Part shown: positions 4,855 through 7,800 of the stretch, one piece after another
Numbering within the stretch: position 1 is the stretch's first letter
Layout: each line of letters begins with the position of its first letter
Assembly (NCBI GenBank): GCA_951406725.2
Contig: OX597817.1
Coordinates: forward strand, 12,958,001-13,022,000
DNA from: Octopus vulgaris
Taxonomy: Eukaryota
Length of the DNA stretch: 64,000 nt
Direction: 5' to 3'
The notes under the pieces: model-generated
Told to the model about the DNA's origin: nothing
What the model saw: the letters and a program-made list of their open reading frames with translations, nothing else
The model's database searches: none
Translations under genes and position numbers: made by a program

Positions 4855-7800
4855 CTGAAAATAGACATTTCAAAACTGAGTGACACAGTTGGCAAAGCAT
4901 TCTACTAACATTACCTTCAACAAAAGTCTTACATAAATAAGGACGGTTTCAAATGTTCTATGCTGCTTTACTTTTGGGATATCTGTTACTCAGAGCTAAA
5001 AGAAAAGGTTTGATTAGTTAACGCATTATTATTAACTAGCAGTATCGCCCGGCATTGCTCGGGTTTGTAAGGGGAAATAACTATATAAGCATTTTTAGAG
5101 ATGTAAAGTATAATAGCCATCTCAATATGGCTAACCACAAAGGGGTGGGTGTTACTGTAGCTTTTTACGTTCTGAGATTTAATAATAAATTTTTAGAGAG
5201 TTACTTCCTTTATATATGCCAAAAATGCATTAAAAATGGGAAAAATTGATGATAAATTTTTTTTTAAATCGTAGACTCATCGTAGATGTGCACTAATACC
5301 CAGAAGGGCTCGATATGAATCACGACTATAAGATACCCGCTTTTGGTTAAACTGCACCGCAAAATGTGGGAATAGTTAGGAATCTAAATCATAGGAGACA
5401 GACAGCACACAACCTCACTTTTATATATAAAGATAAAGCTCAGCAATTCTACAATCTGGACATATATTTTACTATTGGATAACTCTTCCAACGTTTATAG
5501 TTCTGGATGCAGCAGTGAAATTCTTGAAATGGATAGAATCCTTGAAACAATTTTAAAATTTTCAGTTGGGTTGTTTTTGAAAAACATATAGAAACTTTAC
5601 ATTTCATTTCCTTAGAACCAATATTCTTTCAATCTGCATGTATACAGAGCATAAGATGATAATTTAAATTGCACATCAGAAGAAAATAAATGTTTGTTCA
5701 ACACCTATAATTTTACAATGTTGACTCAGTTGAGGAGGGTATGGATGGCTGAACACTTCAATGGAAAGCTCAGCATCATTCTCATGGAACATCCTCAGCT
5801 TTGCCTCTTTCAAGAGACAAAAACTCAAGTACTACTCATACAAAAACGCATCAATGTATCATATCTCCTCTAAACATGTGCAACACTCAGCTAGTGCCCT
5901 AAATGTTAATCATAATTATGTAAAACAAAATTATGAATAACATGATTTTCAAGATGCTTAAATATTACTAAGGATTTTCTACTGCTTTAAATTATACTTT
6001 TTATTATCTGAGATGCACTAGTATACCTCTTGTAGCAAACAAGTGTACTGCAGTACATCATTCAAGAACCACAGATCTAATATGTGATACTAATGAGAAA
6101 TAGTTATACAATAGTATTAAAGTTCAGTTGCATTATTAATCAATTTGCCATACCTTGTTAAAGGGTACATGTATAATCCATTCACAAACAATTGAATGGG
6201 GATAGGTTTCACCTTCCACAGTGGGGTAACTGAAGGATCCATTTACACCTGTATAACTGCCTCCACAATCTGAAATTGTCAACATAAGGATGTCAATTTA
6301 AACCTTTTAAGATCATAACTGATGAAAACACAATATTTGAAACCTAACTTTATAACAATGCAGTTAGAAATTCAAAATTAATCATTAGCAATGGAAACAG
6401 TATTAATATGAAAAGATAATCATTATATCCAACTAAACATGGATGCCTTGTTAGAACACCGAATACAGCATTATTAGCCTTGAGAGATCCTCTTATATAG
6501 ATGAGGTGATTGGCAAATAAAAGCACATGCACAGATCATAGCCGATTTAATTTGAAGAACAGGCACCTGCATTTTCACTACAGTGCTCACCAGTAAATCC
6601 ACATAGCCGACAAAATTCGTCTGTCATGAGTGATGGAATTTCCATATTATGTGGTTTCATTCTACTGAAACTCATCAATGGGAAGCATCTGGTGACCACA
6701 CAGCAGCAAGATTTGATTGGCACACAGTCATCTAGTGCTTTCCACTGATAAGCTACAATGGAATTGTGGCACCCATGACAGCTGAATTTCATCTGCTATG
6801 ATTTATGTGTATGCTTTTATTCACCAGGCACCTATATGAGGGGATCTCTCATACACTGTACTTGGTGTTCTAGCAAGGCATCCATGTTTACTTCAATATA
6901 AAGATTACCTTTTGGTAGTTAGGGCCAGCCCTAGGTTTGCTGGCACCCCAGGCAAGCTGAACTTTGGTGTGTACAAGATGAAGGTCATGGAAATTTCCTT
7001 GTCTCTGTCACGCCTTCCTTGGTGCTCCCTAGCATATGGCACCTTGGGCAATTGCCCAAGTTGCCAGTATTTTGAGCCAGCTCTGTTGGTAGTAATACTG
7101 CTTTTATCATTAATAATTAATTTTTTAATTTTCTATAGTTGTTGTTGCATAAATAATAAACCAAAGTATAGAGTTACATAAAAATTTGATAATAATCGTA
7201 GTTTCTGTATCCATTGTTTCATTATAAATTAGTTTGCTTACTGTTTGATCAAAAATCACTCCTCTTCAAAAATTCCCAACCTACTTACTGGTACATAATT
7301 AATTCAAGCATAGCAAACTTAAGAAATATTTATCAATTTTACAGATCTCAACAGTTCACAGAAACTAGCCTTCAAGCTGCTCATTAATCATATCTTAAAT
7401 TATTTGCTCTTTCTGAGAGAGAGAGGTGAGAGAGGGGAGAGAGAGGAGAGAGAGGAGAGAGAGAGGAGAGAGAGAGAGAGAGAGCGAGAGAAAGAGATTC
7501 TGCTTTGCTGTTTGAGTGACTCTGTCAAAATAAAAATCTTCTTCAAGTATTGCTCGCAATCTTCAAAGCATGCATATATCTGTTAAACAAAAGAAGCTGG
7601 GAAGTATTTAAACACCCAGGATACAATCTACAACAGTGCTTTTCAAACTTTTTGCTGGAGCGGAACCCCAAGGAAACATTCCACTGGCTCGAGGAACTCC
7701 TGTGCAATAATTTAATAGTCTTATGCACACATATCTGCACAGGAGAATTAAAAATTACTGCCGATTTTAGCACTTTTGTAACTTCTTGCGGAACCCCTGG

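Follow-up and report, generated by a model that had tools for sequence, protein, structure and literature searches.

We wondered how a piece of coding sequence came to lie in the arm of an inverted repeat, within an intron of the very gene that it resembles. The window, which is the whole stretch of 64,000 nucleotides of Octopus vulgaris DNA analysed here, holds part of a cubilin gene on its minus strand. A preliminary description of its letters had pointed to 53 nucleotides of intron that match the neighbouring EGF exon, and had offered local templating, capture by a mobile element, and a lost or paralogous donor as possible origins.

An exon copy flanked by a short duplication

Alignment bore out the central observation: the insert agrees with the EGF exon at 47 of 53 positions on the same strand, with the translations as first given. 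The two stretches are spaced 1498 nt apart, leaving a gap of 1,446 nt between insert and donor (Table 1). The match is not due to chance: its alignment score is 76, and 200 shuffles of the surrounding 10 kb never gave more than 31. Exact copies of CATAGCCGA flank the insert on both sides, as had been reported. C6602 fits either the copy or the repeat and so represents 1-nt microhomology at the right junction, and the junctions carry no poly(A) or poly(T) tail of 5 nt or more. Pairing of the arms picks up again at 6602, in agreement with the preliminary description, and ends near 6552, where about 6546 had been given. The minus strand from 6370 to 6921 is predicted to form a single long hairpin from which the insert loops out (z -12.1). 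An open frame of 82 codons (6550-6795, minus strand) in frame with the insert gave no Pfam match, and an in-frame stop follows the insert; the scar is probably without function. A-to-I editing or an exon-pairing element was discarded as an explanation: the copy has the same orientation as the exon and the differences are not of the A-to-G type.

Table 1. Positions of the features discussed, numbered from the first letter of the window.
Feature	Position	Strand	Remarks
Next cubilin exon, CUB1 start	6154..6269	-	Pfam, splice sites, RNA-type contigs
Host intron	6270-7947	-	between exons 7948-8137 and 6154-6269
Left arm, copy of the ~340-bp hammerhead unit, truncated at its 5' end	6370..6700	-	ribozyme strand is the cubilin sense strand
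Possible second exon-like patch	6500..6523		20/25 to 7983-8007, one gap
9-bp target duplication, copy 1	6537..6545		single occurrence in family units
4-nt filler, left of insert	6546..6549		alternative: exon 8037-8040, then 7-nt deletion
Acceptor, 53-nt cubilin EGF exon copy	6550..6602	-	sense to gene; 47/53 to 8048-8100
9-bp target duplication, copy 2	6602..6610		extendable to 16 bp at 13/16
Left-arm type I hammerhead, decayed	6639..6684	-	C3 to U; two changes in helix III
Right arm, inverted copy of the ~340-bp unit, joined 5' to 5'	6701..7128	+	interrupted by nested element
Right-arm hammerhead remnant	about 6739-6763	+	without GAAA box, without helix III
Nested short element, right arm	6920..7085		exact 8-bp target duplication (6912-6919, 7086-7093); later insertion
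Cubilin exon, end of second-last and all of last EGF repeat before CUB1	7948..8137	-	Pfam EGF E 3.4e-14, splice sites
Donor stretch	8048..8100	-	entirely within exon; sole other genomic match among best candidates scored

Assembly can be disturbed by inverted repeats, and an artefact of this kind might imitate an insertion. Support for the junctions was sought in four DNA runs (of 24 listed) from four studies, with organism labels A-D, in the form of short-read contigs rather than raw or long reads. In all four, single contigs reaching from 6428, 6437 or 6472 to 6957 span both junctions without gaps and with 0-1 differences. Run X1 is possibly the source sample, in which case the other three DNA runs are the independent ones. 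The 11% divergence from the exon is, moreover, unlike a read chimera. The insert is not an assembly artefact, an explanation to which we give next to no chance. All four organisms, which are close relatives, carry it and no empty site occurs among them; the scar is older than the split of organisms A-D.

The donor exon belongs to a cubilin gene

The exon that contains the donor stretch is 190 nt long and collinear with full-length cubilins. At least nine exons in the window, lying between 49251 and 4627, align collinearly with residues ~5-620 of a full-length protein named Cubilin (P0042) and with four others, and one full-length relative clusters with 'cubilin homolog'. The best PDB match of the CUB exon is cubilin 3kq4. 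The gene has the cubilin layout of N-terminal segment, EGF run and CUB run, with its 5' part only in the window. These comparisons confirm the cubilin identity proposed earlier.

Splicing across the intron was seen in two of four RNA-type runs (X14 and X17), in which 7948 is joined to 6269 and the whole intron is removed; the other two runs have no contig there. None of the contigs of these four runs lies over 6365-6888, and they are uninformative on exonisation, editing and small RNAs. Next to the first mapped cubilin exon we noted a 365-bp direct pair (49441-49798 and 50332-50696) of 93% identity and low copy number in the window; its members are separated by 534 nt, and it is possibly another proximal duplication. 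A 183-bp unit in four tandem copies of 99% identity, at 55173-55909, looks like a young repeat array.

The copy is unique in the genome and in its repeat family

When the genome was searched with 6540-6610, the best candidates scored held the insert and the exon only; the 28-nt core, at up to 3 mismatches, matched the insert only. In the protein comparison, other EGF stretches of the genome reached at most 57% identity (31 matches; best 150 of 569 candidates scored). One region (G000 C9:59.84-60.07 Mb; L065-L071) holds long single-frame EGF-array stretches of about 280-500 codons, with several repeats in a cluster.

Clustered amino-acid changes had led the preliminary description to consider a lost duplicate exon or a paralogous EGF exon as donor. 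Three adjacent differences between insert and exon, at 8069-8071, speak for such a donor, and no outgroup cubilin exon fixes the ancestral state: searches among homologues and representative proteins gave no close orthologue of the EGF exon, P0143 (79% identical) covering the CUB1 exon only. Against it, the searches described above found no other DNA match and no closely related EGF stretch. In addition, organisms B, C and D, as well as RNA-type run X18, agree with the insert at exon position 8056. The T/S difference, one of three amino-acid differences, thus arose on the exon side in lineage A, and the identity of the insert to the B/C/D exon allele rises to 48/53. The five differences that remain include two CpG-type transitions and two changes at third codon positions, and are ordinary decay. 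A lost or paralogous donor is accordingly quite improbable. At 8068, one X18 contig with a depth of 4 carries A in place of C, an Ala-to-Ser change beside the clustered differences, which is either an allele or an error.

We aligned the copies of the host repeat; 13 of 62 loci were left out as duplicates of the same place, as were units not spanning the insert site. The 65 extra columns made by the insert are empty in 48/48 family units that span the site, pointing to the local, single-copy event templated by the neighbouring exon that had been suggested. Five interruptions of at least 20 nt occur among the 49 loci, two of them within the element of the window, and none of the other three looks like a unique local copy. 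A Pack-type element that carries and mobilises an exon fragment, also put forward earlier, would fit a mobile host repeat with many copies (first-look candidates: 868 and 1,495, best 40 scored each). Yet none of the 48 units has the insert and, among the best candidates scored, the exon is its one genomic match. Moreover, the host has a hammerhead, variable inversion centres and asymmetric ends, with no fixed terminal inverted repeats. We see hardly any room for mobilised capture.

The host repeat is most likely an inverted retrozyme-type insertion

The host unit is 341 bp long with a GC content of 0.35. In 35 of 49 loci it has neighbours on the same strand, and 17 of the 49 hold inverted pairs, all 17 with the 5'-to-5' polarity and with variable inversion centres. 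Nine of the 17 (L005, L007, L015, L017, L025, L028, L030, L034, L062) have a one-sided extension of 30-60 bp, and the locus in the window is extended at both ends. The inverted hammerhead arrays fall into two apparent subtypes that differ in a compensatory helix II pair. The left arm differs from the family majority in 37/240 columns (15.4%; family mean 15.2%). Both arms may stem from a single source, as they have two of ten rare variants in common, the number that 2/48 family units also share.

On its minus strand the unit has what we take to be the type I hammerhead core, each position of which is kept in 38-47 of 42-48 units. Five of the 48 units, too short over the hammerhead, were left out before pairing was counted. 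Across the three helices, 85.9% of cells are paired (43/48 units and the window), with compensatory pairs in helix II (UA 29, GC 7) and helix I (UA 20, CG 11). None of 500 shuffles reached this pairing, in a test inflated by the relatedness of the sequences and with a structure drawn from the family majority, and slid controls stayed at or below 51%. Rfam gave no match over 6200-8000, and for hammerheads in 15 loci it gave none either, microsatellite-driven matches below the gathering score being the only ones. From its core and helix III changes (Table 1), the left-arm hammerhead is predicted to be inactive. It lies in the cubilin sense and an active copy would cut the pre-mRNA, so that one may speculate that the core mutation was selected.

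Two short elements lie nearby. The one nested in the right arm, presumably hAT-like, has decayed terminal repeats and is present in contigs of all four organisms. The other, at 7634-7852, is flanked by an exact 8-bp target duplication (7626-7633 and 7853-7860) and has terminal inverted repeats; its copy number is very high, with a summed contig depth of up to about one million.

We compared the unit with non-LTR retrozymes as described in excerpts of Cervera and de la Pena 2020 (PMC7229834) and of Li, Clavereau and Pollet 2026 (10.64898/2026.07.22.740005). By these accounts the monomers measure about 170-400 nt with a GC content under 45%, which the host unit fits. Like the metazoan non-LTR retrozymes of PMC7229834, it is a tandem unit of ~340 bp with 35% GC and one type I hammerhead. 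It also has a short helix III with a palindromic tetraloop and, often, a U-U mismatch at the helix II base, as described for axolotl HHR_Amex2. It differs from known non-LTR retrozymes in that its family is old, about 15% from the majority, and gave no Rfam hammerhead match. On these grounds we consider an old, inverted insertion of a non-LTR retrozyme the most likely identity of the host.

Penelope-like elements, according to the portion of PMC8557442 consulted, form partial tandems, have an inverted 5'-truncated copy adjoining the 5' end and carry a tail of 30-40 bp at one end. The polarity of all 17 inverted loci puts the arms 5' to 5' and so corresponds to this geometry, as does the one-sided extension in 9/17; the locus in the window differs in being extended at both ends. 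The likeness, and with it the link to Penelope, is one of insertion geometry. It is thus probable that the host is a retro-repeat of the Penelope type, not a foldback DNA transposon, and the label 'foldback element' used earlier gives way to an inverted pair of hammerhead-bearing tandem units. We found no literature on octopus foldback inverted-repeat transposable elements. The consulted part of PMC13282606 mentions neither hammerheads nor retrozymes; TE libraries in published supplements may already name the family.

A probable DNA-level event after the repeat had landed

We think it quite probable that error-prone DNA break repair wrote the exon copy into the repeat arm after the repeat had inserted. 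The process would have begun when a non-coding, retrozyme-type unit of ~340 bp, mobilised by a Penelope element, entered the intron as a 5'-to-5' inverted pair, whose left arm would then have acquired a private A-to-C change at 6543. A staggered break in this arm may have left a free 3' end that used the exon 1.5 kb away as template for ~53 nt, by synthesis-dependent annealing or a microhomology-type template switch, yielding the 4-nt filler and the 9-bp duplication. The copy would since have decayed neutrally, in part through CpG transitions, with the exon changing at 8056 in lineage A and a short element later inserting in the right arm. Because all four organisms carry the insert, this order of events is one that we infer.

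Position 6543 bears on the template. It is C in both 9-mers, C in 0/46 family units and A, the majority base, in the right arm. This is most simply read as a mutation of the genomic copy that came before its duplication, and it speaks for an event at the DNA level once the repeat was in place. We give this argument moderate weight, because the common source of the arms is itself only suggested and because age does not separate the two events (5/53 in the insert against 15.4% in the arm, P 0.15).

Alternatively, a Penelope-type reverse transcriptase could have left the retrozyme RNA during integration, continued on the cubilin transcript made at this locus and returned 9 nt upstream; it may even have copied twice, with 6500-6523 as a second product, and a retrozyme would then have captured a host exon in cis. 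The ribozyme strand of the left arm is the cubilin sense strand, so that the insert has the sense orientation relative to both RNAs, and the donor is wholly exonic; an RNA template would yield the same, which counts against the DNA-repair reading. Penelope-like elements are, in the consulted portion of PMC8557442, reported to retrotranspose host genes in trans, and a possible second collinear patch would fit as well. However, the same-sense orientation has a 1-in-2 chance, exonic donors are what readers spot, the insert has no exon-exon junction, and a unique local capture was found in 0/48 other loci. Moreover, had the RNA been copied anew, one 9-mer or both should show the family base at 6543 unless C was already present in the source, and neither the 46 units nor the other arm has C there. 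The transcript as template, which the preliminary description had named beside the exon, is in our judgement unlikely, if worth keeping in mind. If true, it would be a route for retrozymes to acquire host coding sequence; a narrow literature search found no report of retrozymes capturing host exon sequence.

The possible second patch would, if real (p 0.004-0.04), call for a more complex event. Its score of 23 against the exon is reached by 0/48 family units against exon 7948-8030 (maximum 20). Simulations gave 0.00085 with the segment picked after the fact, 0.004 for the whole unit and 0.037 for 2,905 random 100-mers, and among the controls 18 exon strands reach 22. The patch keeps the family base at three mismatched positions, shares 6516 with the right arm, has a TG/CA change that fits CpG decay and contains a 5-nt insertion that reads as a local duplication, all of which suggests chance; we doubt that it is a genuine second patch. 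A further similarity, of 6428-6444 to exon 8033-8049 (15/17), is family-wide and ends exactly at the donor boundary. Six of 48 units equal this score against the exon, and the similarity may have aided pairing or be due to chance.

Relation to known captures and duplications

The break-repair reading places the insert beside two described classes of event. Tan et al. 2021 (PMC8277862), in the portion consulted, attribute single-copy Pack-TIRs to transposition-independent gap filling from cis donors mostly <5 kb away, with microhomology of 1-36 bp (median 2). The insert resembles these in being a single copy with a near cis donor, probably captured after the element had landed. It is not a Pack-TIR, as its host does not have the structure of a terminal-inverted-repeat DNA transposon.

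The closer parallel lies in the repair-mediated duplications of Pace, Sen, Batzer and Feschotte 2009 (PMC2671141), cited here from part of the paper. In their survey 824 of 1,136 insertions lay within 5 kb of the donor, with a peak near 1.2 kb, and the 824 donors included 4 partial and 4 full exons. Of 39 proximal cases, six had a target duplication and none combined filler and target duplication without microhomology, which was counted at 2-9 nt; not all junction marks were required. The octopus insert likewise measures at least 50 bp, interrupts a repeat copy, has a single donor (50 bp-5 kb) and no poly(A), and bears junction marks. Filler, target duplication, occasional exon donors and neutral decay are further common traits. 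It differs in its 1-nt microhomology and in its hammerhead repeat host, and their survey covered vertebrates only; its junction type, filler with target duplication, is listed in their Table 1 and is a minority one there. By title, we found no literature on such duplications in molluscs. As a single case the insert matters little; what is useful is the correction that this family's long 'foldback' hairpins most likely represent inverted insertions of retrozyme type and not DNA transposons. The event itself is likely an ordinary one: one more repair-mediated duplication of a described kind, here outside the vertebrates and inside a hammerhead repeat.
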